Source: Escherichia phage vB_vPM_PD114. From it: DNA of 64,000 bases. Under the pieces are notes generated by a model. That model had not been told where the DNA came from. It was given only the letters and a program-made list of their open reading frames with translations, and searched no databases. The position numbers and the translations under genes were made by a program. The number at the start of each line of letters is the position of its first letter. Position 1 is the first letter of the stretch. Where the stretch lies: the sequence record MH675927.1, one strand, 5' to 3'. This document shows positions 24,582 to 59,824 of the stretch, one piece after another.

Positions 24582-24848
24582 TTACTCCGCAATCTGAGCC
24601 ATGAATTCACGTAGTTCAGAAAAACCTCCTACGTGGGTTAGCTGTTCACCATCTTCCACAAAAATCTGAGGGAATGTGCGTGGTAGAACACCTGTTTTCT
24701 CTAAAACCAGATTCTGAATCTGATCTAAAGAATAGTCTTCATCTAAGGTAAGATATTTAAAATCCTGTTCACGCTGTTCCAGTAGAATCTTAGCGTTAGT
24801 GCAGAAAGGACAATTTGGTTTACCGTAGATAATAAAATTCATTTTCAC
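24582..24848 (-). CDS. glutaredoxin/NrdH-like redoxin
   Basis: CPFC active site near N-terminus, about 88 aa; SD aaggag. Confidence 0.75.
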   Translation of the reverse strand: MKMNFIIYGKPNCPFCTNAKILLEQREQDFKYLTLDEDYSLDQIQNLVLEKTGVLPRTFPQIFVEDGEQLTHVGGFSELREFMAQIAE

Positions 24849-26226: not shown

Positions 26227-26238
26227 TTAATTCCCCCT

Positions 26239-27108: not shown

Positions 27109-27116
27109 ACTCCTCC

Positions 27117-43722: not shown

Positions 43723-44127
43723 TTATTGTAGCTTAAGTGAACTGCGAAGACGTTTCTCTTGCTGATCACGAATATGTTGTGGAACCTCATGAATTGAGTC
43801 GTTACCGTGCCTATTTTCAACAACTAAAGAGATAACTTGATAACCAAACTCTTCAGCAAGAGTAAAATAAGGTTTAAGTTCTTTCTCTGTGGTTGAAGTG
43901 TTAGAGACAATAATCTTTTTAATATTAGATGCCATAGCATCACGAACAATACTCTGACACCATGCGTGTGCTTTACCTACATTTTCTGGCTTCCAATCGT
44001 AAACACCACTTTCTGTGTAATGATATTGATCTGCCTCACAGATAGGCCAATAACCTTCAGAAATAATTTCTGCTACTGTAGATTTACCTGCACCTGAAAC
44101 ACCACGTAAAATGATAAGTTGTTTCAT
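43723..44127 (-). CDS. P-loop polynucleotide kinase-like protein
   Basis: N-terminus MKQLIILRGVSGAGKST resembles T4 Pnk kinase domain start; SD tggagg. Confidence 0.6.
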   Translation of the reverse strand: MKQLIILRGVSGAGKSTVAEIISEGYWPICEADQYHYTESGVYDWKPENVGKAHAWCQSIVRDAMASNIKKIIVSNTSTTEKELKPYFTLAEEFGYQVISLVVENRHGNDSIHEVPQHIRDQQEKRLRSSLKLQ

Positions 44128-45060
44128 TTAGCCTCCAAAGAAGTTTTCTATTTCTTTACGTCGCTCTTGTGGATCTAAAGCAGCCCATTGAGTCTTGGTA
44201 AAGTTGTTTCGAAGCCATTCTAGCAAAGTATAATATTCTTCGTCAACAATTTGTTTAGCATTTTTTGGGTTGTCCCAAATCATATCCCACTTCTTATTGC
44301 CACCACGCATAAGGAATTTCTTAGCAAGATAGTATGGTGACTTAATCTTTAACAGCAAGTTAAACGGATAGTTTGTTTCACGAACTACAAACCCTTCGTG
44401 CTTACATTGTTTAGACATTTCAACAACATCTGAAAATTTAATCATCTGATAAACTTCAGGACGTTTAAATTTTGTAACAGATGCAATCCCATCGAGCACA
44501 CCTTCAGGTAGCATGAAACTTGTCCCATCATCATTTTGAATTCTTGCTCCGATTAAGTATGCACCTGGTTCTTCTTCAACAATATGTGGATCAGAAGGAT
44601 CACAGATTTCAAAAAGGAAAGTTGCTTTTGCACTTTCTGTCCACTTAATGAAATATTCTATGTCATCACACTCGGAAACAATATGGTTCTTGGCAAGAGT
44701 TGCAAAATCTGACTCTAGGCTCCCTGTTGTTGATACAATAAGTTGCCCTTTGTACACACCTACAGATGCCATAAAACCGTTTACTTTACGGACAGCATCT
44801 ACAAGTTGGTCTGCTGGAAGATCTGTACCATTCTCAAAACGATTAAAGATTTTAGTAAAAGGCCAAATAACAACATTGTCTTCTGAGTCAACAACCAACC
44901 CACGACAATCTAGAAGTCGTTTGTCAACGTTCCACAAGTTATCCCAGAATACATTGTTTTTGTATTTAAGTACAGCAAGACCAGCATACTCTCCAGATTT
45001 AACTTCTTTTTTATGCACTAAACCTTTTGCAATCAGGTCATCACAATTGAACTTAGCCAC
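44128..45060 (-). CDS. RNA ligase (Rnl1-like nucleotidyltransferase)
   Basis: motif I KVNGFMASV followed by Gly-rich segment as in T4 Rnl1; GTG start after aaggag. Confidence 0.55.
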   Translation of the reverse strand: MAKFNCDDLIAKGLVHKKEVKSGEYAGLAVLKYKNNVFWDNLWNVDKRLLDCRGLVVDSEDNVVIWPFTKIFNRFENGTDLPADQLVDAVRKVNGFMASVGVYKGQLIVSTTGSLESDFATLAKNHIVSECDDIEYFIKWTESAKATFLFEICDPSDPHIVEEEPGAYLIGARIQNDDGTSFMLPEGVLDGIASVTKFKRPEVYQMIKFSDVVEMSKQCKHEGFVVRETNYPFNLLLKIKSPYYLAKKFLMRGGNKKWDMIWDNPKNAKQIVDEEYYTLLEWLRNNFTKTQWAALDPQERRKEIENFFGG

Positions 45061-45061
45061 C

Positions 45062-45613
45062 TTAATCTCCTTTGATTATCTTATGATGGTCTACAACAAC
45101 AATATCACGCTTATCCATAATAGAGATGATTTCGTCAAAATGCAAGATTTTTCCGTGTGCGTCCCAACCAACGTCCAACATTTTCCCATACAAATGATCA
45201 GGGAATGATCCGTGAGAGTGCCCGTGTAGCATGATTGATCCATGCCCTTGTTTATTCCAGGAAGCCATAGGGTAATGACTTAAGACGAAGAACAGTTTCT
45301 GATATTTCACTTCGTCATAATACACCACCTCGCCATATTCTGCAAGCACTTCTCGGTGTTTGCTGTAATCATGGTTCCCAACACAGTAAGTGATATCACC
45401 TTGAAGACGTGAAGCAATTTTACGGGTATCTTCTTCAGTCCCGAAACAGAAGTCGCCCAAGTGCCACATCTTGACACCAGGACTCGTAGCACATTTATTC
45501 CATGCTTCAATCAGTGCTTCTGTCATATGATCCATATCTTCCCACGGGCGATATTCAGGAGCAAACTCTCGAATACGTTTGTGCATAAAATGCAAATCAC
45601 TTGTAATAAACAT
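45062..45613 (-). CDS. calcineurin-like metallophosphoesterase
   Basis: DLHF, GDFCFG and GNHD metal-binding motifs. Confidence 0.7.
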   Translation of the reverse strand: MFITSDLHFMHKRIREFAPEYRPWEDMDHMTEALIEAWNKCATSPGVKMWHLGDFCFGTEEDTRKIASRLQGDITYCVGNHDYSKHREVLAEYGEVVYYDEVKYQKLFFVLSHYPMASWNKQGHGSIMLHGHSHGSFPDHLYGKMLDVGWDAHGKILHFDEIISIMDKRDIVVVDHHKIIKGD

Positions 45614-45972
45614 TAGTATAATCCCTCGCTGAATAGTTCACTGTCGTGACCATTTCTTTCATAGTTAATTTGTTTGGCGTTATCTGCAATGATATAAGCA
45701 TCTTTGCGACTCCACCAATTATAATACTGATCAATAAACCCTTGATTATCAGGTAAGCAAAACAGCTTATCAATCAATCCTGCATCTTTTAAAACATTAA
45801 GTTGTGCAGATAGTACAGGATTTGCATGCCTAACACAAAGAATAATCAATTCTTCGCCATTGTTGAGAATATACTTATTCGCAGCGCATACTATAACACG
45901 TTGAGCATAGTGATCCTCACCAATCCAAGTAAGAGGTTGGTAACAAATATCATGTTGATTAGTAGCGCACAT
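45613..45972 (-). CDS. hypothetical protein
   Basis: track ORF 45613..45975 trimmed by one codon to ATG. Confidence 0.5.
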   Translation of the reverse strand: MCATNQHDICYQPLTWIGEDHYAQRVIVCAANKYILNNGEELIILCVRHANPVLSAQLNVLKDAGLIDKLFCLPDNQGFIDQYYNWWSRKDAYIIADNAKQINYERNGHDSELFSEGLY

Positions 45973-46121
45973 CAATTTTCTCCGTACTCTTTTAATCTAT
46001 CAGCGAAAAAACTGTAATCAGGAAGTAAAAGATCATTACTCGTATCGTTACAGTTTTCTTCATCTTTATAGATAAAACGCCCTTCATCCTCTTCTTGCTC
46101 TGACCAAACTGAGTAATGCAT
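45972..46121 (-). CDS. small acidic protein (49 aa)
   Basis: ORF filling gap; stop overlaps downstream start. Confidence 0.3.
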   Translation of the reverse strand: MHYSVWSEQEEDEGRFIYKDEENCNDTSNDLLLPDYSFFADRLKEYGEN

Positions 46122-46130
46122 AATACCTAC

Positions 46131-46472
46131 TTAATAGTTAACACGTTTAATTTCAACACCATAGGATGAAATAAAATTTTCCTTAGCTAACATATATTTA
46201 CCGGCAGCAGAAGGATTTGATGTATGAACATAGATAGTTTTAAGAGCATCCCATTCACCAGCGTACAACATACATTCTACGTCTAAGAACGCATGATATC
46301 CTTCTTGATCTTCTCCAAGATCATTATCGAAGTGTATCTCTGAGATATTATTGAAATTATCTTCATCTGAAACAAAAGATAACCAATCCTCAAAAGATTT
46401 TAACCAAATGGCATCCTCATAACCATAATCTTTAGGATCTCTTAAATCGTCTAACCAAAGAATTTTAGCCAC
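46131..46472 (-). CDS. hypothetical protein
   Basis: track ORF 46131..46505 trimmed to GTG after aggaagggg. Confidence 0.5.
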   Translation of the reverse strand: MAKILWLDDLRDPKDYGYEDAIWLKSFEDWLSFVSDEDNFNNISEIHFDNDLGEDQEGYHAFLDVECMLYAGEWDALKTIYVHTSNPSAAGKYMLAKENFISSYGVEIKRVNY

Positions 46473-46474
46473 TA

Positions 46475-46666
46475 TCAACCCCCTTCCTGTTTCTCTTCTT
46501 TCCAAGTTTTACCATTATCTACCAACTTCTTAGAAACAGCAAATCTTTCTCCATTGATATAAAACAAATAAAGAATAAAGGATTTTCCTATAGTTACAGT
46601 ATCTACTACTTTTACACGCTTCACACCTTGCATGTATTTGGCTTTACCTGAATAAATAAGGAACAT
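46475..46666 (-). CDS. hypothetical protein
   Basis: track ORF; SD aaggaata. Confidence 0.5.
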   Translation of the reverse strand: MFLIYSGKAKYMQGVKRVKVVDTVTIGKSFILYLFYINGERFAVSKKLVDNGKTWKEEKQEGG

Positions 46667-47729: not shown

Positions 47730-48098
47730 CTAATTAACGTCAGCACTATGATTGTTGAGAGTATAGGATACTCCATCGCCCAAGTCAACATGAATCTCAA
47801 CTCCTAATTGTCTTTCTAATGGTAAACGTTTTGAGAATTGATAATTACAAAGTTTACAGTCTAAGTCAAGCAACTCATGTTTGCTTAAACCTGCAACGAT
47901 AACTTTGCTTCCTACTGTCCACTCAATACCTTCAAAGTTATCTCTTCTTTTCAAAATGTCAAGTAAGAAGATGATTTGTTGCCATTCCGTAGACAAGTCT
48001 TCTTCATAGAATGCAGAACAAAAAGTTTTATCATCGTAGAAAGCATACATTATGCCTCCATCTATTGTTTCACTTCTAACGTAACGTGTGACCCTCAT
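47730..48098 (-). CDS. hypothetical protein
   Basis: track ORF 47730..48137 trimmed to internal ATG after caggaggg; first gene of the - strand block. Confidence 0.5.
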   Translation of the reverse strand: MRVTRYVRSETIDGGIMYAFYDDKTFCSAFYEEDLSTEWQQIIFLLDILKRRDNFEGIEWTVGSKVIVAGLSKHELLDLDCKLCNYQFSKRLPLERQLGVEIHVDLGDGVSYTLNNHSADVN

Positions 48099-48437
48099 TA
48101 TTCCCTCCTGTATGGCTCTGTAACGAGCTAATAGCACCTAAGATATGCAATCACCTTACCTCACAGTAAAACTCGTTACAATCGTTTTTAGGAGGTTCAG
48201 GTTGTACTTAAAAATAATCTAAAAGGTGTTGACAAACGCAAAAAAGTATGCTACCCTAACCCCCGAAAAACGCCGAGCGCAGCGAGGGGGTGTTATCTAA
48301 TCTTGTGATACATGATCTAACAGACAACTGAGTAGTCTACATATAGCACTATGTTATGTCTATAATACTAACATACATGCTCTATACTAACAATAGATTA
48401 TTTATTAATTTTATTATTAATTAAATAATAAATATCT

Positions 48438-48466
48438 ATTGACTTTAGATCTATCTGTATGTAGAG
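48438..48466 (+). promoter_or_regulatory. sigma70-like promoter (TTGACT-N17-TAGAGT)
   Basis: near-consensus hexamers upstream of 48507 gene, preceded by AT-rich tract. Confidence 0.5.
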
Positions 48467-48506
48467 TAGAGAACATAAAGTCCTAACGCAACTAAGGAGA
48501 TAAAGA

Positions 48507-49400
48507 ATGAAAGTTAGTATTCTGCATGGTGTTGACTGTTATGTTACTGATGTAGACGTTAAAGTGTTTACATTCTCTGGTGGAGAACAACATGTTCAAT
48601 TAGATACGAATCTATCAGGTTTCAATCATGCTACAGACAGAATCTTACTCACTTTAGAAGTAAGATCTGCTAAAGACTTGATGACTTTGGTTATGACTAA
48701 GAATGCATTGGACAATATGCTATATCATAAACCATATTGTGTTGATTTACTCATGTTGTATGTGCCGTATGCACGACAAGACAGAGTGTGTGAGCCTGGG
48801 GAAGCATTCGGAGTTAAAGCATTTGCTTCTATAATTAATTCATTAAATTTCTCACGTGTTATCGTTGCTGATCCGCATAGTGATGTTACTCCAGCAGTGT
48901 TTGACAGACTCTGTGTAATACCTCAAGAGGAGATTGCTTACGAAACTTTAAAGTGGAAGTTACGTATGGAGAATTTTGCTCTTGTTAGCCCTGATGGTGG
49001 TGCTCTTAAGAAAATATTTAAATTATCTAAGAAAATGTCTTTAGATGTGTTCTGTGCAGAGAAGGTTAGAGATACCGCAACAGGTGCTATTGTTCGTACA
49101 GACATTTCTGTACAGGATTTCAATAAGCGTAACCTGATGATCGTAGATGATATCTGTGATGGTGGTAGAACTTTTATTGAATTGGCTAAAGTGCTACGTG
49201 CTCGTAACGCAGGTAAGATTGAGTTATATGTTACACACGGTATCTTCTCTAAAGGTCTTAAAGAGTTGAGTGAACACTTTGACTGCATTCATTCTCTTAA
49301 TGTGTGGGAAGATAACATCCAAGAAGATTCCGGTGTTCTTGTTAAGAATCAGTCAGATTTGCAACAACAAATTGTATCTCCATACGTGTGGAATTTTTAA
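48507..49400 (+). CDS. ribose-phosphate pyrophosphokinase-like enzyme (Prs homolog; Adps-type candidate)
   Basis: YARQDR motif and PRPP-binding loop LMIVDDICDGGRT; SD taaggagataaaga. Confidence 0.75.
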   Translation: MKVSILHGVDCYVTDVDVKVFTFSGGEQHVQLDTNLSGFNHATDRILLTLEVRSAKDLMTLVMTKNALDNMLYHKPYCVDLLMLYVPYARQDRVCEPGEAFGVKAFASIINSLNFSRVIVADPHSDVTPAVFDRLCVIPQEEIAYETLKWKLRMENFALVSPDGGALKKIFKLSKKMSLDVFCAEKVRDTATGAIVRTDISVQDFNKRNLMIVDDICDGGRTFIELAKVLRARNAGKIELYVTHGIFSKGLKELSEHFDCIHSLNVWEDNIQEDSGVLVKNQSDLQQQIVSPYVWNF

Positions 49401-49410
49401 ATAATAAGTG

Positions 49411-49439
49411 TTGACAATAGGGAGTATGCTTAGTAAGAT
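49411..49439 (+). promoter_or_regulatory. sigma70-like promoter (TTGACA-N17-TAAGAT)
   Basis: near-consensus hexamers upstream of 49472 gene. Confidence 0.5.
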
Positions 49440-49471
49440 ACTCCCACATTAACAAACAAGGAGACATAACT

Positions 49472-51205
49472 ATGAATATTTTTGCACCTTTTGCTACTGA
49501 TTGGTACAAACCTGGTCACAAGCAGATGTACAATCAAAATACAAAACTCATTTTCTCTAATTTAACTCCTCGTAATGATAAAAACTTTGCACACTATGCA
49601 GATCGTGAAGCACGTGGTGTGATTGTTTTAGGTATTCGTCGAGCAGTCACTGATGCTCTTGTAACTATGTGGGATAGCTTCTTTAAAATGTCTCGTAGTG
49701 CAGCAGTAAATAAATTTTATCGTATGTCTAAAAATGCATTAGGTGCTTCTGCTCCTTCTGCTGAATGTTGGGGAGAATTGCACGATTTAGGTTATCTTCC
49801 GCTGGAAGTTCGATCTCTGCCAGAAGGTGTTTTGTGTCCTATTGGTGTTCCTGTGTTTACTGTGCATAATACTTTAGAAAAATTCTTTTGGTTAACTAAC
49901 TATGTGGAAACACTGTTGTCAGATGAAACTTGGAAGACAATGACTAATGCCACAGCAGCTTTTCAGTATAAGCGTATCGCTATGGCATATGCGATGGCAA
50001 CGTGTGATAATATTGATCACGTTAACTTCCAGTGTCATGACTTTAGCCTACGTGGTTTAAGTAATATCGAAGATGGTTATAAGAGTGGTATCGCTCACTT
50101 GGCATCGTTCACAGGAACAGATAATATTCTGGCTATTGAAACTGTGCATGACTATTATGGTATTGATTATGATCAGTTTGTTGCAGGTTCTATTCCGGCA
50201 ACAGAACATTCAGTAGCAACGACTAACATTGGAGCTATTGTTGAAGATCTGAAGAAACATTTCCCACATCTTAAAGATGATGTAGATGGGCTTCGTTATG
50301 TAGCAGAAAAAGAGTTTCTTCGTCGTTATATCGAAGAAATTGTTCCAGAAGGTTTTTGTTCATATGTAGCAGACTCTTATGACTATTGGGCTGTATTGAC
50401 TCGCATTCTGGTAGAATTGAAAGATTCCATTATGTCACGAAATGGTCGTCTTGTTATTCGTCCAGATTCAGGAGATCCGGTTAAAGTTGTTGCAGGATAC
50501 AATGTTGAATCTTTTGATAACTATGAAGACCTCTTAAATAATGGTATTGCGACAGCCACTGAAGTAGTTCATTTGGCTGATGTTAATAAGTATTACAATG
50601 TTCTTCAGGATTGCAGTGTTGCTGACTGTATTGATGAAACTTATGAGATTCCTTATTGTGAAGCAGTAGGTTCTATTCAAATCCTTTGGGAAGTGTTTGG
50701 TGGTACTATCAACCGAAAAGGCTACAAGGTTCTTGATCAGCATATCGGTATGATTTATGGTGATTCTATTACTGTTGAACGAGAACACGAGATCTTACGC
50801 CGACTGAAGAAGAAAGGTTTTGCAGCTTCCAATATTGTATTTGGTGTTGGTAGTTATACTTATCAGTTCAATACACGAGATACTTTTGGTTTTGCTGTTA
50901 AAGCAACAGGTAGTATTATCGGTGAACACGAAATTTTGGTAAGTAAGGAGCCTAAAACTGATCCTGGTAAACGCTCTGCAAAAGGTTTTATTAAGGTTGT
51001 TAAGGATACCAATGGTAATCTGTCTCTTGTAGATAATCTTTCTTTTAAAGATATCCAGGATGAAGACAATGAGTTACAAGTTATCTTCAAGGATGGTAAG
51101 GTTATTACACCACAAGTAGAAGGCCGTGATGAAACATTCACTGATATCCGCAACCGTGTTGACGTAGAGGTTCTTCGTACTATGGGAACCATCCAGGTTG
51201 ACTAA
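49472..51205 (+). CDS. nicotinamide phosphoribosyltransferase family enzyme (Nampt homolog; Namat-type candidate)
   Basis: Nampt-family blocks HDFSLRG, LVIRPDSGDP, GMIYGDSIT, KTDPGKRSAKG; 577 aa with N-terminal extension. Confidence 0.8.
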   Translation: MNIFAPFATDWYKPGHKQMYNQNTKLIFSNLTPRNDKNFAHYADREARGVIVLGIRRAVTDALVTMWDSFFKMSRSAAVNKFYRMSKNALGASAPSAECWGELHDLGYLPLEVRSLPEGVLCPIGVPVFTVHNTLEKFFWLTNYVETLLSDETWKTMTNATAAFQYKRIAMAYAMATCDNIDHVNFQCHDFSLRGLSNIEDGYKSGIAHLASFTGTDNILAIETVHDYYGIDYDQFVAGSIPATEHSVATTNIGAIVEDLKKHFPHLKDDVDGLRYVAEKEFLRRYIEEIVPEGFCSYVADSYDYWAVLTRILVELKDSIMSRNGRLVIRPDSGDPVKVVAGYNVESFDNYEDLLNNGIATATEVVHLADVNKYYNVLQDCSVADCIDETYEIPYCEAVGSIQILWEVFGGTINRKGYKVLDQHIGMIYGDSITVEREHEILRRLKKKGFAASNIVFGVGSYTYQFNTRDTFGFAVKATGSIIGEHEILVSKEPKTDPGKRSAKGFIKVVKDTNGNLSLVDNLSFKDIQDEDNELQVIFKDGKVITPQVEGRDETFTDIRNRVDVEVLRTMGTIQVD

Positions 51206-51276
51206 ATAAAAACTTCGTGATAAGATTAAGGTAAGGAGAGCCTACAACTGCCCTGGATGGGCTTCACGAAGGATTT

Positions 51277-51498
51277 ATGAAACAACATAATTTTTATTTT
51301 CGTTGCCGAGCCTGTAACAGACACTTGACTAATCATTCCCGTAGAGACAGGAATGGTAATATTCAAGAGTCGGATCTATGCTCGATTTGTACAAGTTTGG
51401 CATTCGATGACAGTCCCGAAAGGGTTTATCAACATCAAAGTGTAACTGATCTTCTTCTAAATTACACAACACCAGAGGAGGAATTAGATTTCACATAA
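51277..51498 (+). CDS. hypothetical Cys-rich protein
   Basis: track ORF; CRACNRH and CSICTS Cys pairs. Confidence 0.5.
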   Translation: MKQHNFYFRCRACNRHLTNHSRRDRNGNIQESDLCSICTSLAFDDSPERVYQHQSVTDLLLNYTTPEEELDFT

Positions 51499-51511
51499 TT
51501 AAGGAAACAGT

Positions 51512-51622
51512 ATGTCTACAGAAATTATTTTTGGCTTATCTGTTTTTATTGCTATTGTATCTTTTGTATGCGGTTATACACTAGGTTACAGATCAAGAAA
51601 AAATATTGTAAAAACTAGTTGA
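51512..51622 (+). CDS. small hydrophobic peptide (36 aa)
   Basis: SD taaggaaacag before ATG; hydrophobic. Confidence 0.35.
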   Translation: MSTEIIFGLSVFIAIVSFVCGYTLGYRSRKNIVKTS

Positions 51623-51648
51623 CAACATAGCTAGTTATTTGCTAAGAT
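51619..51648 (+). promoter_or_regulatory. sigma70-like promoter (TTGACA-N18-TAAGAT)
   Basis: upstream of 51679 gene. Confidence 0.45.
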
Positions 51649-51678
51649 AAGCACAAGTTAAACAAAAAGGAGAAAACT

Positions 51679-51945
51679 ATGACAGAACGTACTTATGGTA
51701 AAGAATTGATTGAGAAGCACGTATTGATTGATAATAAAGGTGGAGCAATCTTTATTTTTGAACCTGAATCAGTTCTTACTGAAAACGAAAATGGTAGCGT
51801 TAGCCTTAAAACAGAAAGTTTGGTAATTGACTTCCTTGCTCTTCTGGATGAAATGGGGCTTCCGCACGAAGAAGAAGCAGCTATTGCTTTGATTACAGTT
51901 CTTCTGGAGAAACGCGAAGCTGGTGAAATGACCCAGTATGCTTAA
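51679..51945 (+). CDS. hypothetical protein
   Basis: track ORF; SD aaaggagaaaac. Confidence 0.55.
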   Translation: MTERTYGKELIEKHVLIDNKGGAIFIFEPESVLTENENGSVSLKTESLVIDFLALLDEMGLPHEEEAAIALITVLLEKREAGEMTQYA

Positions 51946-51952
51946 TATTCAA

Positions 51953-52028
51953 GGTTCCATAGCTCACTGACGAGAGCGCACACCTCATAAGTGTCGAGGG
52001 CAGGGATTGTAACCCTGGGGAACCACCA
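51953..52028 (+). tRNA. tRNA with CAT anticodon (Met or Ile-lysidine), atypical T-loop
   Basis: acceptor GGTTCC/GGAACC, D-arm GCTC-actgacga-GAGC, anticodon loop CTCATAA, 3' ACCA; T-loop ATTGTAA non-canonical, 7:66 mismatch. Confidence 0.45.
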
Positions 52029-52059
52029 TTTAAAAGGAGATGCTATGCATCTCCTATAT

Positions 52060-52145
52060 GCAAGTGTGGTGGAATTGGTGATACACATTGTGCTTAAAAC
52101 GCAACGCTTAAATGATTGAGGGTTCGAATCCCTCCACTTGCACCA
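52060..52145 (+). tRNA. tRNA-Leu (TAA)
   Basis: 7-bp acceptor GCAAGTG/CACTTGC, anticodon loop CTTAAAA, long variable arm, T-arm GAGGGTTCGAATCCCTC, encoded CCA. Confidence 0.7.
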
Positions 52146-52147
52146 AC

Positions 52148-52253
52148 GCCTAGTAGGGTATTTGGTAATTCCGAGGCCATCAAAGCCTGAAAAATATGTT
52201 AGACCGCTTTGTCTAACTAAATACGAAATATGGTTCGATTCCATAACTAGGCT
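52148..52253 (+). ncRNA. atypical 106-nt tRNA-like RNA (possible TCA anticodon hairpin, long extra arm)
   Basis: perfect 7-bp acceptor GCCTAGT/ACTAGGC and canonical T-arm TATGGTTCGATTCCATA but about 30 nt too long; 7-bp extra hairpin gttagac-cgcttt-gtctaac; fold not computed. Confidence 0.3.
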
Positions 52254-52285
52254 TCAATTTAAATAATAATTTTAGTAAAAATATC

Positions 52286-52314
52286 TTGACATTCACTTAG
52301 TTTTTTGTTATAGT
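52286..52314 (+). promoter_or_regulatory. sigma70-like promoter (TTGACA-N17-TATAGT)
   Basis: about 12 nt upstream of tRNA-like gene at 52326. Confidence 0.5.
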
Positions 52315-52325
52315 TACTGTGAAAA

Positions 52326-52407
52326 CGGGGTGTATCTCACCTGACTTCTAATCAGGCGTTAACCGAGTAATTGGAGTATGCAGGTTCGAATCCTGTCACC
52401 CCGACCA
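52326..52407 (+). ncRNA. atypical tRNA-like RNA with TCT (Arg-type) anticodon hairpin, no canonical D-arm
   Basis: 7/7 acceptor CGGGGTG/CACCCCG, T-arm GCAGGTTCGAATCCTGT, ACCA end; anticodon-like hairpin cctga-CTTCTAA-tcagg begins at position 15. Confidence 0.35.
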
Positions 52408-52425
52408 AAAAGTTTTAAAAACTAC

Positions 52426-52454
52426 TTGACAAGCAAGATAGTTTTATGTTAGAT
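52426..52454 (+). promoter_or_regulatory. sigma70-like promoter (TTGACA-N17-TTAGAT)
   Basis: upstream of tRNA-Ser at 52471. Confidence 0.5.
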
Positions 52455-52470
52455 TTAAAGTATGATAACG

Positions 52471-52560
52471 GGAAGGTAGGGCGCAGCGGTGCGCAACCAG
52501 GTTTGAACCCTGGCCCATTGTAGCGATACGGTGATGGTTCGACTCCATTATCTTCCTCCA
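52471..52560 (+). tRNA. tRNA-Ser (TGA)
   Basis: acceptor GGAAGGT/ATCTTCC (one GU), D-stem GCGC, anticodon stem CCAGG/CCTGG loop TTTGAAC, long variable arm, T-arm, CCA; anchored to ORF track at 52531. Confidence 0.65.
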
Positions 52561-52578
52561 AATTCAACTAGGAGCTTT

Positions 52579-52731
52579 ATGAATTATAAAACTATTGGAC
52601 AGGTTGTTACCGGAGTTAAGATTGTAGATAATAAAGTTGTTTATGAGTATTCTAATCTTCAACAATCTGAAGATGGTAAAAATATTCGTATGGTAAAAGC
52701 AGAACAAAAAGATTCCGGTTGTTTTGAATAA
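52579..52731 (+). CDS. hypothetical protein (50 aa)
   Basis: track ORF 52531..52731 overlaps tRNA-Ser; trimmed to ATG after taggagc. Confidence 0.45.
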   Translation: MNYKTIGQVVTGVKIVDNKVVYEYSNLQQSEDGKNIRMVKAEQKDSGCFE

Positions 52732-52739
52732 TTAAGAAC

Positions 52740-52825
52740 GGTAGATTGGTGAAATGGTAGCCACAACAGTTTGCTAAACTGTCGTCGGAAACGGCGTGTA
52801 GGTTCAAGTCCTACATCTACCGCCA
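52740..52825 (+). tRNA. tRNA-Ser (GCT)
   Basis: perfect acceptor GGTAGAT/ATCTACC, anticodon stem ACAGT/ACTGT loop TTGCTAA, long variable arm, T-arm GTAGGTTCAAGTCCTAC, CCA. Confidence 0.7.
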
Positions 52826-52845
52826 AATTTATGCGAGGAGGATGT

Positions 52846-53226
52846 ATGCCAAGCAATGATTATATGCGGGAATACATGAAAACTCGGTGGCAGAAGCGAA
52901 GAGCTTCCGCAATCCTCCAGCTTGGAGGTAAATGTGTTAATTGTGGGTCTGTAGATGACTTGGAATTTGATCATAAAGATTCAAGCGAGAAGAAGTTTTA
53001 TATTAGTCGAATGAGTTCATGCTCTGAGGCTAAATGGCAGGAAGAACTTGCCAAATGTCAACTTTTGTGCCATGACTGTCACATGAAGAAGACAAGAATA
53101 TCCCAAGACATGGGAAACAGAATTAGAACAACGGTGTGTGTTTGCGGGGCAGTATTTTATAGTACAAAGGCTTATGCTGGACATACACGGTGGTGTAAAG
53201 AGTATGCATCGTTAGCCAAGCGGTAA
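52846..53226 (+). CDS. HNH endonuclease (free-standing, inside tRNA cluster)
   Basis: CVNCGS..DHKD..CHDCH HNH motifs; track ORF 52771..53226 begins inside tRNA-Ser, trimmed to ATG after gaggagg; 3' end overlaps tRNA-Lys by about 21 nt. Confidence 0.65.
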   Translation: MPSNDYMREYMKTRWQKRRASAILQLGGKCVNCGSVDDLEFDHKDSSEKKFYISRMSSCSEAKWQEELAKCQLLCHDCHMKKTRISQDMGNRIRTTVCVCGAVFYSTKAYAGHTRWCKEYASLAKR

Positions 53227-53280
53227 GGCACTTGACTTTTAATCAAGGGAGCGAAGGTTCGAATCCTTCACGATGTACCA
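53206..53280 (+). tRNA. tRNA-Lys (TTT)
   Basis: acceptor GCATCGT/ACGATGT (G1-U72), anticodon stem CTTGA/TCAAG loop CTTTTAA, T-arm GAAGGTTCGAATCCTTC, CCA. Confidence 0.7.
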
Positions 53281-53285
53281 AACAC

Positions 53286-53372
53286 GTAGGTATCGCATAG
53301 CGGCAATTGCTGGAGACTGTAAATCTCCTGCCCTTCGGGGCTTCGTTGGTTCGAGTCCAACTACCTGCACCA
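53286..53372 (+). tRNA. tRNA-Tyr (GTA)
   Basis: acceptor GTAGGTA/TACCTGC, anticodon stem GGAGA/TCTCC loop CTGTAAA, long variable arm, T-arm, CCA. Confidence 0.7.
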
Positions 53373-53379
53373 AATTAAA

Positions 53380-53463
53380 GATGGATTGGCCTAGTGGTTG
53401 GGCGACGGACTGTTAATCCGTGAACGAAAGTTCTAGCAAGGTTCAAATCCTTGATCCATCGCC
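53380..53463 (+). tRNA. type II (long variable arm) tRNA with GTT anticodon (Asn-decoding)
   Basis: perfect acceptor GATGGAT/ATCCATC, anticodon stem ACGGA/TCCGT loop CTGTTAA, extra arm gaac-gaaa-gttc, T-arm CAAGGTTCAAATCCTTG, CCA. Confidence 0.5.
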
Positions 53464-53471
53464 AGAATTAT

Positions 53472-53548
53472 GGACTTGTAGAGTTAAGGTAAACCCTCAG
53501 TCGCAAAGAGGCTTCTGGAATTGCAGGTATCGAATCCTGCCGAGTCCA
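53472..53548 (+). ncRNA. degenerate tRNA-like element
   Basis: acceptor GGACTTG/CGAGTCC and 8-nt T-loop GCAGG-TATCGAAT-CCTGC but no canonical 5-7-5 anticodon arm; no CCA. Confidence 0.3.
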
Positions 53549-53554
53549 ATTATT

Positions 53555-53629
53555 GCTCCTATCGTATAACGGCTATTACGGTTGCCTTGTAAGCAACTTA
53601 TCAGGGTTCGAGTCCTTGTGGGAGCACCA
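53555..53629 (+). tRNA. tRNA-Thr (TGT)
   Basis: acceptor GCTCCTA/TGGGAGC, D-arm GTA..TAC, anticodon stem GTTGC/GCAAC loop CTTGTAA, T-arm, CCA. Confidence 0.7.
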
Positions 53630-53652
53630 ATTTTAACTCTAAAGGAGTGTAT

Positions 53653-53976
53653 GTGACAGAAAAAGAGTTAGAGAAATATTTTAATATCAATGTTTTCGAT
53701 GGTTTTGATGATATTGAAGATGTTGAAAGATATTATGAAGTAGAGTTAGATAAGGATAACATTGTAATTCTTTCTGCCACTTATGATTGTGCATATTATG
53801 AAGGTGAATCTCACGTTTATTTTTATGATATGAAAACATCTTTGTTTTATGAAGTACACGCATATCATTGTTCTTGTTATGGTTTAGAAGGTCAGTGGGA
53901 ACCTGAAGAAATAGGTGATTTGAGCTTTACGGTTGCATATCTAAACAGACGTGGTGCATCTACTATTTTAAAATAA
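53653..53976 (+). CDS. hypothetical protein
   Basis: track ORF 53647..53976; probable start at second GTG after aaaggag. Confidence 0.5.
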   Translation: MTEKELEKYFNINVFDGFDDIEDVERYYEVELDKDNIVILSATYDCAYYEGESHVYFYDMKTSLFYEVHAYHCSCYGLEGQWEPEEIGDLSFTVAYLNRRGASTILK

Positions 53977-53990
53977 ATATTAAAAGCCTC

Positions 53991-54020
53991 TTGACAAAGG
54001 GGCTAATAATATGTTAGAGT
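53991..54020 (+). promoter_or_regulatory. sigma70-like promoter (TTGACA-N17-TTAGAG)
   Basis: upstream of tRNA-Gly. Confidence 0.5.
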
Positions 54021-54031
54021 AATATTGTTAA

Positions 54032-54106
54032 GCGGGTATAGTGTTAATGGTAGCATATGAGGTTTCCACCCTCCAGGTGCAGGTTCAAGTCCTGTTACTC
54101 GCTCCA
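54032..54106 (+). tRNA. tRNA-Gly (TCC)
   Basis: acceptor GCGGGTA/TACTCGC (one GU), anticodon loop TTTCCAC, T-arm GCAGGTTCAAGTCCTGT, CCA. Confidence 0.7.
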
Positions 54107-54537
54107 AGATTATTTAAATGGAATCGCTAGAGAAAATTTCTCTTTTCGCTCATGGTTTTCTCCTTCAAACTCTAGCGGTTCTTTTTAAGTGATTTTTTAG
54201 TTTATTGGAGATTCACTGCCTTAGTGTGAGCTAAAATCGAGGAGCCATCGAACTGTCTGATTAATGATTTGCGAATCATTATAGTTTTAAGACCCCGGCA
54301 GTTTTATGGTGTACCTCTTGAATGTGAATGATGACGGGTTTATGGTTATCCTGGTCGTTAAATATCCAAAAACCTATGTTCCCCTTGAGGGCTTGCGCAG
54401 GCAATGCCAATAAGTCCTGCATTTTCATTTAAAAGAGAATTTATAATGGAAAAAGATGAACTTAAGTATGCTAAGCCTCTGGCTTCTGCTGCACGAAAAG
54501 CAGTTCGTCACTTTGTGGTAACACTGAAGTAATTTAT
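54107..54537 (+). other. structured noncoding spacer inside tRNA cluster (candidate small RNAs)
   Basis: 8-bp stem cgctagag/ctctagcg then U-tract (approx 54125-54190); hairpin taatgatt-tgcg-aatcatta (approx 54259-54278); gcagg..cctgc hairpin plus U-tract (approx 54393-54430); no convincing ORF. Confidence 0.35.
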
Positions 54538-54612
54538 TGGAGATTAGCCTAGTGGGAAGGCAACGGCCTTTGAAGTCGTGATGACTAGGTTCGATTCCTA
54601 GATCTCCAGCCA
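54538..54612 (+). tRNA. tRNA-Gln (TTG)
   Basis: perfect acceptor TGGAGAT/ATCTCCA, D-stem GCC/GGC, anticodon loop CTTTGAA, T-arm CTAGGTTCGATTCCTAG, CCA. Confidence 0.7.
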
Positions 54613-54619
54613 AGATTTA

Positions 54620-54695
54620 CAGTGCGTAGCGCAGTTGGTAGCGTGGGAGCCTTGGACGCTTCAGGTCGCAGGTTCGAGTCCTGCCGCACTGACCA
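54620..54695 (+). tRNA. tRNA-Pro (TGG)
   Basis: perfect acceptor CAGTGCG/CGCACTG, D-arm GCGC-AGTTGGTA-GCGT, anticodon loop CTTGGAC, T-arm GCAGGTTCGAGTCCTGC, CCA. Confidence 0.75.
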
Positions 54696-54700
54696 AATTT

Positions 54701-54775
54701 GCAGAGATAGCTGAGACGGATTAGTGCTACCCTGAAAAGGTAGAAAGGATGGATCGTTACCATCTCTCTGCACCA
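54701..54775 (+). tRNA. tRNA-Phe (GAA)
   Basis: perfect acceptor GCAGAGA/TCTCTGC, anticodon stem CTACC/GGTAG loop CTGAAAA, T-arm GATGGATCGTTACCATC, CCA. Confidence 0.7.
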
Positions 54776-54852
54776 AATAACACCATCCAAGGAGTAGACT
54801 TGGTTAACTGTCAATAGCACATTGAGGCTTCTTACAGTGGTGTACTTATTAT

Positions 54853-54937
54853 GGCTAAGTGGTGGAATGGTATACACGATACGCTTAGAACGTATTGCCC
54901 CAAGGGATTGTGAGTTCGAGTCTCACCTTAGCTACCA
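54853..54937 (+). tRNA. tRNA-Leu (TAG)
   Basis: acceptor GGCTAAG/CTTAGCT (G1-U72), anticodon stem ATACG/CGTAT loop CTTAGAA, long variable arm, T-arm GTGAGTTCGAGTCTCAC, CCA. Confidence 0.7.
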
Positions 54938-54952
54938 AATTATTACAGATTG

Positions 54953-55031
54953 CGCGGGATAGAGGAGTCTGGTCGTCCTCGCCAGTTTCATATGCTGGAG
55001 ATCATCGGTTCAAATCCGATTCCCGCCTCCA
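54953..55031 (+). tRNA. tRNA-Met (CAT), possible initiator type
   Basis: acceptor CGCGGGA/TCCCGCC with 1:72 mismatch, D-stem GAGG/CCTC, anticodon loop TTCATAT, T-arm ATCGGTTCAAATCCGAT, CCA. Confidence 0.55.
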
Positions 55032-55089
55032 CTAAATACCTCCCTTCTGGTGTAATGATTAAATTACATTGACACCTCAAGGAACTCAT

Positions 55090-55172
55090 AGCTGGGTAGA
55101 TTTAAAAGAGTATGGTACTCAATATGGCTCCAAACCATAGATCAAGGGGTTCGATTCCTCACCTTGCTGCCA
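55090..55172 (+). ncRNA. tRNA-Trp-like (CCA anticodon) with irregular 5' region
   Basis: anticodon arm TATGG-CTCCAAA-CCATA, D-like arm GAG-TATGGTA-CTC, T-loop TTCGATT, 3' CCTTGCT-G-CCA; only 6/7 acceptor candidate, separated from D-arm by about 11 nt. Confidence 0.35.
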
Positions 55173-55177
55173 ATTAT

Positions 55178-55253
55178 TGTGGTATCGTACAGATGGTTAG
55201 TACACTCGACCGATAATCGAGAAACAACGGTTCGACTCCGTTTACCACGACCA
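55178..55253 (+). tRNA. tRNA-Ile (GAT)
   Basis: 76 nt; acceptor TGTGGTA/TACCACG (U1-G72), D-stem GTAC, anticodon stem CTCGA/TCGAG loop CCGATAA, T-arm AACGGTTCGACTCCGTT, CCA. Confidence 0.6.
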
Positions 55254-56770: not shown

Positions 56771-57999
56771 GTGGCAAGGAAACCTGTCAAACAATCTTTT
56801 GAAAATGTAGATATTGAAGTTAAAGCCCAACCTGGCAAACAAACACTAGCTATGGATCTTATGCCTGAAGTAATGATTTATGGTGGTGCGGCAGGTTGTG
56901 TTTCAGCAGAAACAGAATACTTAACAAGAGACGGTTGGAAACAAATAAGTGAATATGATGGTGAGGATATTTATCAATACAATCCAAGAAACAAACGTCT
57001 TGAATTAGTTACACCATCTTTTGTAGAATATGATGCTAAAGATAATCTGTATTGTATTACAAACGGAGTAGGTGTCTTCCAAGAATTAAGTATGGAACAT
57101 CGCTTTGTTTTCTACAAGAAGAAAAAATCCAAAAAACATTTTGAAATTCTTGTTGGGGATCTTATTGCACTACAGCAAGCAGGACACCCATTACGAGGAT
57201 ATATTGAAAATCCTTTTGGTAAACGTGTTCCGTTTAACATTCAAGGTAAACCTAGCACATATCTAAAAATTCATGAGGTAATGACAAGTGATGATAAGAA
57301 ATATTGCTTTGAAACTCCAAGCAGTTATGTCGTGTTTAGACGTGGCGATCACATCTTCGTTACTGGGAATAGCGGCAAAAGCCGTCTGCTACTTCTAAAA
57401 GCACTTAAATACGCATATAAAGATCCACTGTTTGGTGGTATTCTTTTCCGTAAAAATACAACAGCTTTACGTAAATCTGGTGGTTTGTTTACTGAAGCTA
57501 AAAAACTTTATCTACCATTAAAGCCTCACGTAAGAGAACAGGCTATGGAGATGGAGTTCAGAGCCACAAAAGGTGGCACACTTAAATTTGACCATCTTGA
57601 AAATGATAACGTAACTGCTGAAACTAACCATCAAGGTACACAGTATTCGATGGTAGGGTTTGACGAACTTACACATTTTACACAATATGAAATGCTGTAT
57701 CTGTTAGGGCGTATGCGTTCTGAATCAGAAACATCTTTTATGCTGTGTACTTGTAACCCTGATGCTGACAGTTGGGTGTTGAAATGGGTACTTCCTTATT
57801 TGGATGAAGCTGGTTATCCACGGGAAGATATGTGTGGCAAACAGCTATACTTTCTTATTGTGCAAGATGAACCAGTATTTGCTGAAACAGCAGAAGAGTT
57901 GAAAGAAAAGTATCCTGAAAACTGTTTTATGCAAAACCCAAACACAGGTGAAACAGTGGTTATTGAACCACAAACATTTGTGTTCATTGGTGGAACCAT
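56771..57999 (+). CDS. terL: terminase large subunit, exon 1 (ATPase domain, contains intein)
   Basis: Walker A split as GGAAG | intein | SGKS; track ORF runs to stop at 58009 but inferred 5' splice site follows T at 57999. Confidence 0.65.
56897..57370 (+). other. mini-intein (158 aa) inserted in TerL Walker A loop
   Basis: begins CVSAETEYLTRDG (intein block A-like), internal T..H block (ITNGVGVF..MEHRFV), ends ..DHIFVTGN followed by Ser; excision gives GGAAGSGKS. Confidence 0.65.
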
Positions 58000-58064
58000 T
58001 AATCAATAGTGGCTTTGTGCAGCGATGCACATCGAATAACTTTGTTAATTGCTGGGAAGTCTAT

Positions 58065-58093
58065 TGACAAATAGATAATCAGCAGCTATAATC
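58065..58093 (+). promoter_or_regulatory. sigma70-like promoter inside intron (TTGACA-N17-TATAAT)
   Basis: consensus hexamers about 30 nt upstream of homing endonuclease ATG. Confidence 0.55.
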
Positions 58094-58124
58094 ACTTCTC
58101 CAAAAATATTAGTAGGAGAGTAAA

Positions 58125-58805
58125 ATGAAAAACTTAGATTTCATCGGATACCCGCATTATTGCGCCACATACGATGGTCGTATTTTTAGTTTATACACCC
58201 AAAAATTCCTAAGCGAAAATAAGATGCTTGGAGATTACAAGGGAGTAACCATTTGTGAAAATGGTAACAGGATAGAAGAATTACAGCACAGGTTGATAGC
58301 AAAAGCATTTGTGCCTAACCCTGAAAATAAGCCTTTTGTTAATCACAAAGATGGCAACAAACTTAATAATTGTGCAGACAATCTTGAGTGGACAACAGAA
58401 CAAGAGAATACTCTTCACGCTATGTCCACAGGGTTAAGACGAACAGAAGTCATAAATGACTACAGACCTATTCCAGACACTGTTGCTGTGGAAATTTGCA
58501 AACTGTTAGAGCAAGGATCACGTAACAAAGATATCTGTCAGATGTATAATGTGGCACAATCTGTTGTTAGTGATATAAAAGCTGGCAGAACATATAAAGA
58601 CATTTCACAAGACTTTAACTTTAGAAAAATACCCTCTTCCAACAGAATAAGTGAAGATAAAGTCTTAGGGATTTGTGAAAAGCTGCAAGAAAATATTCTA
58701 TCAATAAATAAAATAGCTAAAAAATACGGCGTAAGTTTTAATGTAGTTAAGAGTATTAAAGATAGGAAAACCTATACGTACTTATCTAATAACTACAATT
58801 GGTGA
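58125..58805 (+). CDS. HNH homing endonuclease (intron-encoded)
   Basis: HNH block HRLIAKAFVPNPENKPFVNHKDGNKLNNCADNLEW; SD taggagag; located inside the terL intron. Confidence 0.75.
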   Translation: MKNLDFIGYPHYCATYDGRIFSLYTQKFLSENKMLGDYKGVTICENGNRIEELQHRLIAKAFVPNPENKPFVNHKDGNKLNNCADNLEWTTEQENTLHAMSTGLRRTEVINDYRPIPDTVAVEICKLLEQGSRNKDICQMYNVAQSVVSDIKAGRTYKDISQDFNFRKIPSSNRISEDKVLGICEKLQENILSINKIAKKYGVSFNVVKSIKDRKTYTYLSNNYNW

Positions 58806-58992
58806 TGTAGTTCAACGACTATCCCGAAAGGGAGTAGGGCAGAAGCAAATGCTGCTCGAAAAGCAAAGCATCTCTTAGGAGATGATGATATAGTCTATTC
58901 TGCACAGTGATGTGCAGCAGTTCATAAGAGAACGTGGAGTAGAGTTGCGACTACTCCAGAATAAAAAGATTTGATAACCCTGAACTAATAAG

Positions 58993-59824
58993 ACTTAACC
59001 CTAAATACTTAGCTTCTTTGAAGGCTCAAACCGCCGTTAAGAGAGCACAGCTTTTAGATGGTTGTTGGTTTGCTCGTGCGCAAGAAGAGAGTTTCTTTAA
59101 CAGAGAATGGTTACACGTTATCAAGTTTAAAGATTTACCAAACAATCTTAAATATATGCGAGCGTGGGATAAAGCAGTATCTGTTCCAACAGAATCTTAT
59201 CGTTATCCTGACTACACAACATCTGTTAAAATGGCTAAAGACTCTGATGGAAATTATTACATTTTTGGTGATTATGATTATGATGCTCACGATGAAGGTA
59301 GTAAAATTTTTGGTAGATTCAGAAGACTACCAGGTGATCGAGATAATTTAATTCTAAACCAATGTAAGATTGATGGAGATGAAGTTACAGTTGTATTGCC
59401 AAAAGATCCTTCTGGTGCTGGTTTGATTGAATATACAGAATCAGCTAAAAAACTAATTGCTGAAGGGTTTGTTGTTAAACCAGACGCTATGCCTGGTAAC
59501 AAGAAAAAGTTACAACGCTTTATGCCATTTAGTAGTGCTTGTCAAAATGGTTTTGTTTATATTGTAGAAGAATCTTTCCCTAATAAAGAAACTCTTGATC
59601 ATTTCTATAAAGAGATGGAGTCGTTTAATGGAGAAAGATCTACAGCAACATTAAAAGATGATATTCCAGATGCTGCTGCATCTTGCTTTAATACTTTGTC
59701 AAAAGAACAGATGTTTAAAGCAGTAGCAATACCTTCTGCAACAAATGCATTAACAGGGTATGGTAAGATGGGTGGAAGATCAAGAAACTCTTTATCTTCT
59801 CCATATAGTATCAGAGGAAGATAA
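58993..59824 (+). CDS. terL: terminase large subunit, exon 2 (nuclease domain)
   Basis: open frame from 58994 continuous with track ORF 59018..59824 (alternative start); acidic DDIPDAAAS motif; joins exon 1 in frame via junction codon ATA. Confidence 0.55.

Follow-up and report, generated by a model that had tools for sequence, protein, structure and literature searches.

Two adjacent genes of Escherichia phage vB_vPM_PD114 very probably constitute a functional, canonical two-gene module of the phage NAD+ reconstitution pathway NARP1. They lie within the 64,000-nucleotide stretch of sequence record MH675927.1 that we analyzed, hereafter the window, which comes from a phi92-like Justusliebigvirus coliphage (Stephanstirmvirinae). 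The first gene, adps (48507..49400, + strand), encodes a 297-aa protein that resembles phosphoribosyl pyrophosphate (PRPP) synthetases (Prs) and that we assign as the ADP-ribose pyrophosphokinase Adps. The second, namat (49472..51205, + strand), encodes a 577-aa protein that resembles nicotinamide phosphoribosyltransferases (Nampt) and that we assign as a “long” form of the nicotinamide ADP-ribose transferase Namat. The assignment draws on the integrity and conservation of both genes, on signature residues, on the finding of no accessory genes, and on membership in a published catalog. The two enzymatic reactions and the counter-defense phenotype are those expected by homology with the systems of Bas63, SPbetaL1, FADO, ICP1, DyoEdafos, and Gary, for which they have been demonstrated.

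The gene pair is conserved and already catalogued as NARP1

The two genes coincide exactly with predicted open reading frames (ORFs), in agreement with the sequence-only reading of two adjacent + strand genes. The motifs quoted in that reading were likewise located, with YARQDR at residue 88 of Adps, and HDFSLRG, IRPDSGDP, and YGDSIT (inside GMIYGDSIT) at residues 189, 329, and 429 of Namat. A spacer of 71 bp separates the genes, which lie on the same strand. Adps matches PHROG family 619, “ribose-phosphate pyrophosphokinase” (E 3.8e-91), and Namat matches family 448, “nicotinamide phosphoribosyl transferase” (E 1.5e-188); judged by these E-values, both matches are far beyond chance. The Pfam domains found are Pribosyltran, Pribosyl_synth, and Pribosyltran_N in Adps, and NAPRTase in Namat.

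The 3.1-kb stretch that contains the pair shares 99.4% nucleotide identity with phage vB_EcoM_PHB05 and at least 95% with 55 phage records, each spanning 80% or more of its length. Phage SD2 encodes the same Namat protein (100% identity). Relative to phi92, 18 codons of adps have changed synonymously and 2 non-synonymously; in namat the numbers are 34 and 8, and the substitutions in both genes fall mainly at third codon positions. This predominance of synonymous changes indicates that both genes are functional and under purifying selection.

NARP1 was defined by Osterman et al. (2024, bioRxiv 10.1101/2024.02.11.579819) as a pathway in which Adps makes ADP-ribose pyrophosphate (ADPR-PP) from ADP-ribose, and Namat uses this product together with nicotinamide to yield NAD+. 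The pathway was validated through deletion of genes 79–80 of Bas63, biochemistry of the SPbetaL1 enzymes, and a deletion in phage FADO (10.1101/2024.02.11.579819). Supplementary Table 1 of that study, which lists Adps homologs, includes PHB05 MF805809_00103, phi92 FR775895_00103, and JohannJBalmer MZ501084_00232. All three entries are flagged “Namat within 10 genes = Yes”, and their partner Namats appear as “Adps-associated” in Table S2. The Adps studied here has zero amino-acid differences from the PHB05 entry, and namat differs from its PHB05 counterpart by 2 codons; with these entries, the pair already has a place in the NARP1 catalog. JohannJBalmer is the BASEL phage Bas62, and PaulScherrer, also a BASEL phage, is likewise present in the lists; the two presumably belong to the set of four BASEL phages where the operon caught the authors' attention. 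A NARP1 model is also contained in AntiDefenseFinder. Consequently, the proposal of a candidate NAD+ reconstitution module stands as an Adps plus Namat reading, while its status as a new candidate does not.

The pair reveals no new biology, and the residual novelty lies only in the insertions of the long-form Namat described below. The main value of the analysis is a corrected annotation, in which Adps and Namat replace PRPP synthetase and nicotinamide phosphoribosyltransferase. Since phi92-like phages are in use as therapeutic coliphages and NARP1 provides escape from a whole class of NAD+-depleting defenses, the assignment is relevant to choosing and engineering such phages.

Adps carries signature residues of ADP-ribose pyrophosphokinases

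Apo as well as cryo-EM substrate and product structures of ICP1 Adps define a groove for ADP-ribose formed by F18, R87, F92, H121, D161, D212, and D213 (PMC13586617). In the same enzyme, a remodeled PP loop (C215–S220) holds the ATP donor, F221 acts as the lid, and mutation of the catalytic β-hairpin lysine (K185A) abolishes activity (PMC13586617). The K162A mutant of SPbetaL1 Adps is likewise dead (Osterman et al., 10.1101/2024.02.11.579819).

In our alignment, the lysine corresponding to ICP1 K185 and SPbetaL1 K162 is K186 (codon at 49062..49064, + strand), located within AEKVRDTATG. The counterparts of the ICP1 ADP-ribose contacts are F23, R90, H124, D163, D214, and D215, and the lid residue F221 corresponds to F223. 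The PP loop aligns to C217-D-G-G-R-T222 (49155..49172, + strand). This CDGGRT loop is the same as in Bas63; the equivalent is CDGAAS in ICP1, SSFGGT in SPbetaL1, and IDTGGT in E. coli Prs. The differences from E. coli Prs extend along the protein: its motifs DLHAEQ, PDIGGVVR, KRRPRANV, IDTGGT, and THPIFS are matched in the Adps studied here and in other Adps by DPHSDV, PD.GA.KK, K.R[DN]..TG.I, CDGGRT, and THGIFS.

Sequence identity follows a similar division. The protein is 36% identical to Bas63 Adps (BLASTP, E 3e-43), 35% to SPbetaL1 Adps over 176 aa (BLASTP), and, in a multiple alignment, 38.7% to ICP1 Adps as opposed to 22% to E. coli Prs. Overall, identity to validated Adps proteins is 32–39%, and ICP1 Adps is the closest characterized relative among the sequences compared. 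Matches to the PDB by sequence (E 6e-15 to 1e-5) are ribose-phosphate pyrophosphokinases and one PRPP synthetase-associated protein. The Prs equivalog models of NCBIfam are missed widely, with a best score of 98 bits against cut-offs of 296–297 and scores of 49–78 bits against cut-offs of 322–536 for the remaining models. Only the broad subfamily model TIGR01251 is barely passed (118 bits, cut-off 113). By both its model scores and its lack of the ribose-5-phosphate loop DTGGT, the 297-aa protein falls outside the canonical Prs enzymes.

The C-terminal region gives a less clear picture. After THGIFS, 49 residues follow in Adps, compared with 61 in E. coli Prs and 22–47 in other Adps, and this tail does not align with that of Prs. 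Loss of the C-terminal α11–α12 filament and regulatory module of PRPS is one of the features by which Adps enzymes are recognized. In a 10-sequence neighbor-joining tree, the protein groups with ICP1 Adps and the Erwinia and Aeromonas Adps, and E. coli Prs falls beside the pair of Bacillus Adps. This tree and an 11-sequence counterpart are too small to resolve the roots of Prs and of H. ducreyi NadV (HdNadV), so the family placement rests on the published lists.

Namat carries the helix motif of the adenine-selectivity clamp

Crystal structures of SPbetaL1 Namat (9W5X and 9W5W) define an adenine “selectivity clamp” (PMC12774641). It comprises a selectivity-clamp helix (SCH) with the motif GS-X-phi-X-phi-X-phi-TRD, and a clamp loop (SCL) whose third residue is Arg, Lys, or Tyr and whose stacking residue occupies this or the fourth position (PMC12774641). 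The Namat studied here matches the published SCH motif at 11 of 11 positions, with G460-S-Y-T-Y-Q-F-N-T-R-D470 (50849..50881, + strand) providing Y462 and F466 as the predicted adenine-stacking aromatics. The corresponding sequence is GSYTYQYMTRD in Bas63 and GSFTYQYNTRD in SPbetaL1, both validated Namats, and GSYTYQYVTRD in the Namat of ICP1. In contrast, the motif is failed by all four Nampt comparators, which read GGGLLQQLDRD in nt-1 (KVP40-like), GGGLLQEVTRD in Klebsiella phage Roth90, GSGGALLQKLTRD in mouse, and GAQTYQRNTRD in H. ducreyi NadV (9KE8). The SCL region spans approximately residues 32–51 (TPRNDKNFAHYADREARGVI; 49565..49624, + strand), and its third position is K37, matching the residue in Bas63.

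All residues of the catalytic core are retained. In SPbetaL1 Namat, it consists of D13', Y15', F189, R192, D215, the catalytic His, R306, and D308 (PMC12774641); the protein studied here has D10, Y12, F191, R194, D217, H246, R330, and D332, all of which are invariant in 44 long-form homologs. Its best PDB match by sequence is 9W5X/9W5W (398.6 bits, E 4.5e-118), followed by HdNadV (341.9 bits) and mammalian Nampt (~174 bits), and it is 39% identical to the validated Bas63 Namat. An AlphaFold2 model of the protein reached a pLDDT of 90.7 and a pTM of 0.90.

Accessory genes

Several published systems extend or vary the two-gene arrangement. NARP2 combines a KVP40-type Nampt with a bifunctional Nmnat; NARP1-AP adds a Macro-domain ADPR-1''-phosphatase, Adpp (10.64898/2026.01.28.702374); some NARP1 loci add the RyR-domain glycosidase RyDEP (10.64898/2026.05.28.727677); and NARP3 consists of PnuC and NadR (PMC13464706). 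The six ORFs upstream and four downstream of the pair gave no Macro or RyR match at E up to 0.1. In all, 113 window ORFs were scanned, including a Pfam scan of 99 beyond this neighborhood, and none of the domains CTP_transf_like, NUDIX, Macro, RyR, and PnuC was detected; matches to AAA_33 and AAA_18 occurred without an accompanying nucleotidyltransferase domain. Nmnat, Nudix, NadR, PnuC, Adpp, and RyDEP domains were thus found neither among the neighbors of the pair nor among the other window ORFs scanned. The earlier statement that the window holds no Nmnat is borne out at Pfam sensitivity, and this fits NARP1 rather than NARP2. Beyond the window, coverage came only from the annotations that GenBank gives for two relatives, namely PHB05 to position 109 kb and Bas62 at 125–145 kb, the latter largely re-covering the window region; the PHB05 annotation up to 109 kb contains no such accessory gene. 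As no accessory domain was found in the scanned ORFs, the pair reads as plain two-gene NARP1 and not as NARP2, NARP1-AP, RyDEP-extended NARP1, or NARP3. By the published logic, such a module should not rescue the phage from aRES-type defense.

Proposed mechanism and alternative explanations

The proposed mechanism starts from NAD+-depleting defenses, among them SIR2-HerA, DSR1/2, type I Thoeris, SEFIR, and Kongming, which split NAD+ into ADP-ribose and nicotinamide. Adps would then move the β,γ-pyrophosphate of ATP to the 1'' hydroxyl of ADP-ribose, yielding ADPR-PP and AMP, with K186 and the CDGGRT loop as the predicted catalytic elements. Namat would combine ADPR-PP with nicotinamide to form NAD+ and pyrophosphate, its Y462/F466 clamp selecting the adenine-bearing donor. 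Restoration of the NAD+ pool would allow the phage to replicate and thereby escape defenses that cleave NAD+ to ADP-ribose and nicotinamide.

Several observations weigh against this assignment. Our literature search returned no biochemical or genetic experiment performed directly on proteins of the phi92/Bas62 type, and identity to the validated enzymes is only 27–47%. At the residue level, ICP1 F92 is replaced by C95 in Adps, a position that is Met, Cys, or a gap in other validated Adps. The fourth SCL residue of Namat is Asn38, which is not aromatic, where Bas63 has Trp; the residue that follows, Phe39, is nearly invariant (at least 90% of the subfamily, among 44 long-form homologs) and is a likely candidate for the SCL stacking residue. 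The 577-aa protein is also nearly as similar to H. ducreyi NadV as to Namat (43% against 47% identity). Its model fits 9W5X best (TM-score 0.93), with HdNadV at 0.92 and human NAMPT at 0.90, and we dropped fold comparison as a discriminator between Namat and Nampt since these values are nearly equal. Because the fold does not discriminate, the Namat call rests on the motifs and on gene context.

One alternative is a classical salvage pathway. Here, the first gene would encode a PRPP synthetase and the second a NadV/Nampt making nicotinamide mononucleotide (NMN), which host NadR or PncC would carry on to NAD+. The Pfam, NCBIfam, and GenBank names all fit this pathway: the GenBank records of phi92, Bas62, and PHB05 name the genes PRPP synthetase and nicotinamide phosphoribosyltransferase, and they and NCBIfam NF006629 still label the pair Prs and Nampt. 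Adps just passes TIGR01251, as given above, NF006629 is passed with 463 against 405 bits, and the predicted fold is about as close to true Nampts as to Namat. Furthermore, Namat enzymes retain about half of the PRPP-to-NMN activity of human Nampt in vitro (PMC12774641), and the 577-aa protein may make a secondary Nampt-like contribution. Nevertheless, we consider classical salvage very improbable as the function of the pair. The adenine-clamp SCH motif is present here and absent from all the Nampt-type comparators, the PP loop is of the Adps type rather than the ribose-5-phosphate type, and the score lies far under every Prs equivalog cut-off. The Bas63 homologs still confer protection when the host lacks both pncC and nadR, and their product is ADPR-PP rather than NMN (10.1101/2024.02.11.579819); the Pfam scan found no phage Nmnat in the window. 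The sequence-only reading had held that sequence alone cannot tell the two enzyme pairs apart; this view is outdated, given the full match to the Namat clamp motif and the conservation of the Adps residues apart from F92. Published residue-level signatures now permit Adps and Namat to be named from sequence.

A role unrelated to defense, such as boosting the NAD+ or nucleotide pool or recycling the products of the phage's own SIR2-family enzyme, likewise carries very little weight in our assessment. The window does encode a CobB-like SIR2-family protein (12652-13464, - strand) and many nucleotide-metabolism genes, and NARP1 homologs occur in non-mobile bacterial regions, suggesting housekeeping roles there. 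However, the phenotypes of NARP1 knockouts are defense-specific (10.1101/2024.02.11.579819), and ADPR-PP in Bas63 was seen only with a defense system present. The SIR2 gene lies ~35 kb away on the opposite strand, with nothing linking it to the pair, and a pool-boosting function would in any case be compatible with a counter-defense role. Canonical NARP1 thus remains the assignment that we favor.

Insertions of the long-form Namat

Two insertions distinguish the 577-aa Namat from the SPbetaL1 and ICP1 Namats, in which both are absent from the alignment. Insertion 1 (approximately residues 253–282; 50228..50317, + strand) is predicted to form a helical hairpin after the strand bearing the catalytic His246. 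Insertion 2 (approximately residues 343–399; 50498..50668, + strand) is predicted to form a small α/β subdomain after the strand bearing R330 and D332. Both are confidently folded in the AlphaFold2 model (high pLDDT). Because each follows a catalytic strand (His246; Arg330/Asp332), the topology of the barrel indicates that the insertions should lie on its active-site face. Variable-length insertions are also found in the Namats of Bas63 (593 aa), Erwinia pEp_SNUABM_01, and Pseudomonas PaYy-2, and in the listed long-form (555–596 aa) metagenomic homologs, many of which are on ~150-kb contigs. The Namat structure paper (PMC12774641) contains no discussion of either insertion.

It is conceivable, if unlikely, that the insertions act as an additional lid or docking module with a separate function, and that the promoter-like site and hairpin between adps and namat could uncouple expression of the two genes. 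Candidate roles for the insertions include substrate channeling from Adps, an altered donor range, and regulation. If true, long-form NARP1 would be mechanistically not identical to the characterized short form.

Two further observations concern the architecture of the Namat family. An 867-aa metagenomic Namat homolog (P0097) carries an insertion of ~290 aa exactly within the catalytic IRPD|SGDP motif; the insertion begins with Cys, ends with CGN followed by Ser, and is intein-like. An Adps–Namat fusion was rejected as an explanation of this protein, which is a Namat split by the intein-like insertion in RPD|SGDP. Separately, in PHROG 12872 (547 positions), Adps matches profile positions 9–222 and Namat positions 221–536, which suggests that a fused or truncated Adps–Namat family exists in some phages.

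Upstream regions and promoter-like sites

The pair opens a rightward transcription block, and the GC skew flips in the 369-bp divergent intergenic region upstream of it. Within this region, following an AT-rich tract, a promoter-like site TTGACT-17-TAGAGT (48439..48467, + strand) precedes the adps ATG by 39 nt; the site is also conserved in phi92. A second site, TTGACA-17-TAAGAT (49411..49439, + strand), is located in the 71-bp adps–namat spacer, which differs from that of phi92 by 1 of 71 nt. The sequence-only reading had placed each gene behind its own consensus promoter. Promoter-like sites do precede both genes, but “consensus” overstates their quality, as the -10 hexamers match at only 4 of 6 positions. 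Both genes also have an AAGGAG Shine–Dalgarno sequence 8 nt before the ATG (48494..48499 for adps and 49458..49463 for namat, + strand), and ribosome-binding sites are annotated at the equivalent positions in phi92.

The pattern TTGACW-N17/18-TAAGAT occurs 4 times in the window, compared with 0.17 copies expected by chance, and may represent a genuine phage promoter type, judging from this excess. The copies are at 27913-27941 (- strand), 49411-49439 (+ strand), 51198-51226 (+ strand), and 51619-51648 (+ strand), so that three of the four cluster around or just downstream of the NARP1 pair. Clear palindromes are present in two of these spacers (GGGAGTAT...ATACTCCC in one, GCAGTTAACTGC in the other), and a third contains a weak 4-bp palindrome.

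Overlapping the -10-like hexamer of the site between the genes is a perfect 8-bp inverted repeat, GGGAGTAT(N10)ATACTCCC (49420..49445, + strand). The repeat is conserved in phi92, and its predicted RNA fold has an energy of -15 kcal/mol (z = -2.1). An intrinsic terminator was rejected, since no T-run follows the hairpin; the repeat may serve as an operator or a site of RNA processing. Rfam yielded no match at E up to 0.01 in 47900-52000, and on this basis we call no riboswitch in the region.

Genomic surroundings

Downstream of the pair, three small ORFs precede a 15-tRNA array (51953-55253, + strand) that starts 750 bp after namat. Directly after namat, the ORF at 51277-51498 (+ strand) encodes a zinc-ribbon-like protein of 73 aa with four Cys (PHROG 37033, E 1.8e-36) that is annotated in Bas62 and not in PHB05. 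It is followed at 51513-51623 (+ strand) by an ORF for a 36-aa peptide, hydrophobic as read by eye, corresponding to phi92 gp109. Inside the tRNA array lies an HNH homing-endonuclease ORF (52771-53226; PHROG 4234, E 9e-25). Its 5' end as given by the ORF caller overlaps tRNA-Ser(GCT) at 52740-52825, and the true start is probably downstream of this tRNA, as in the Bas62 annotation. A 151-nt “hypothetical tRNA” annotated within phi92 gp108 (FR775895.2 2965-3115; approximately 50064-50214 in the window) gave nothing by ARAGORN or Rfam, and this annotation is probably spurious.

A few genes upstream of the pair is an RNA-repair-like cluster (43723-46505, - strand). Its members are a polynucleotide kinase, an RNA ligase matching Pfam RNA_lig_T4_1, a phosphoesterase, and, at 46131-46505, a protein of 124 aa that matches cREC_REC, “cyclic-phosphate processing receiver” (E 3e-14). 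The cluster plausibly counters tRNA-cleaving defenses.

At greater distance, the SIR2-family gene mentioned above encodes 270 aa (Pfam SIR2, E 2.4e-19), and the best PDB match of its product is E. coli CobB (1S5P); the family is a class of enzymes that consume NAD+. It has no defense-type match in PADLOC, and its neighbors are without a Macro domain; PADLOC gave no meaningful match for either the gene pair or this SIR2 protein. Relative to PHB05, a 970-bp insertion at 58000-58969 (+ strand) splits the terminase large-subunit gene (56771-59824). It contains an ORF (58125-58805), the presumed source of a Pfam HNH_3 match in its scan batch, and a match to the group I intron family RF00028 at 58729-58917 (45.8 bits, E 3.9e-10), just below the gathering score of 50. 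The insertion probably represents a mobile group I intron that carries a gene for a homing endonuclease. According to the near-identical PHB05 annotation, the window also carries a four-gene dTDP-rhamnose pathway at approximately 24845-28106 (- strand), an unusual cargo for a lytic phage, consisting of dTDP-glucose 4,6-dehydratase, glucose-1-phosphate thymidylyltransferase, dTDP-4-dehydrorhamnose 3,5-epimerase, and dTDP-4-dehydrorhamnose reductase.

Comparison with known NAD+ reconstitution systems

The closest counterparts of the pair are phi92 gp107/gp108, Bas62 (JohannJBalmer) bas62_0248/0249, and PHB05 ATI15842/ATI15843. These are the same genes, with nucleotide identities of 97.8–99.4% and no difference of substance from the pair studied here.

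Like the pair studied here, NARP2, NARP1-AP, RyDEP-extended NARP1, and NARP3 serve phages in restoring NAD+. A homologous enzyme of the Nampt family operates in NARP2; however, the KVP40-type Nampt of nt-1 has no SCH aromatic motif and no adjacent Adps.

Among the characterized NARP1 enzymes, the SPbetaL1 Namat, the sole Namat with a crystal structure, shares with the protein studied here the catalytic residues and the SCH clamp, whereas it is a short form of ~490 aa without both insertions and has Arg40 in the SCL in place of Lys37. For ICP1 Adps, the residues K185, F18, R87, H121, D161, D212, D213, and F221 are all conserved in the Adps described here; the differences are F92 in place of C95 and the PP loop CDGAAS in place of CDGGRT, and the Namat of ICP1 is a short form.

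Bas63 (JohannRWettstein) genes 79–80 share with this pair the adps–namat order on the same strand, a short spacer, and the same host species. The Bas63 Namat is also a long form (593 compared with 577 aa) with insertions at the same two sites, and the two systems have the same PP loop and the same SCH type. On the other hand, the two Adps proteins are only 36% identical and the two Namats only 39%, and the fourth SCL residue is Trp in Bas63 and Asn here. The Bas63 spacer measures 45 bp in contrast to the 71 bp found here, where the spacer has its own promoter-like site and hairpin, and the two phages belong to different lineages, Ounavirinae for Bas63 and Stephanstirmvirinae for vB_vPM_PD114.

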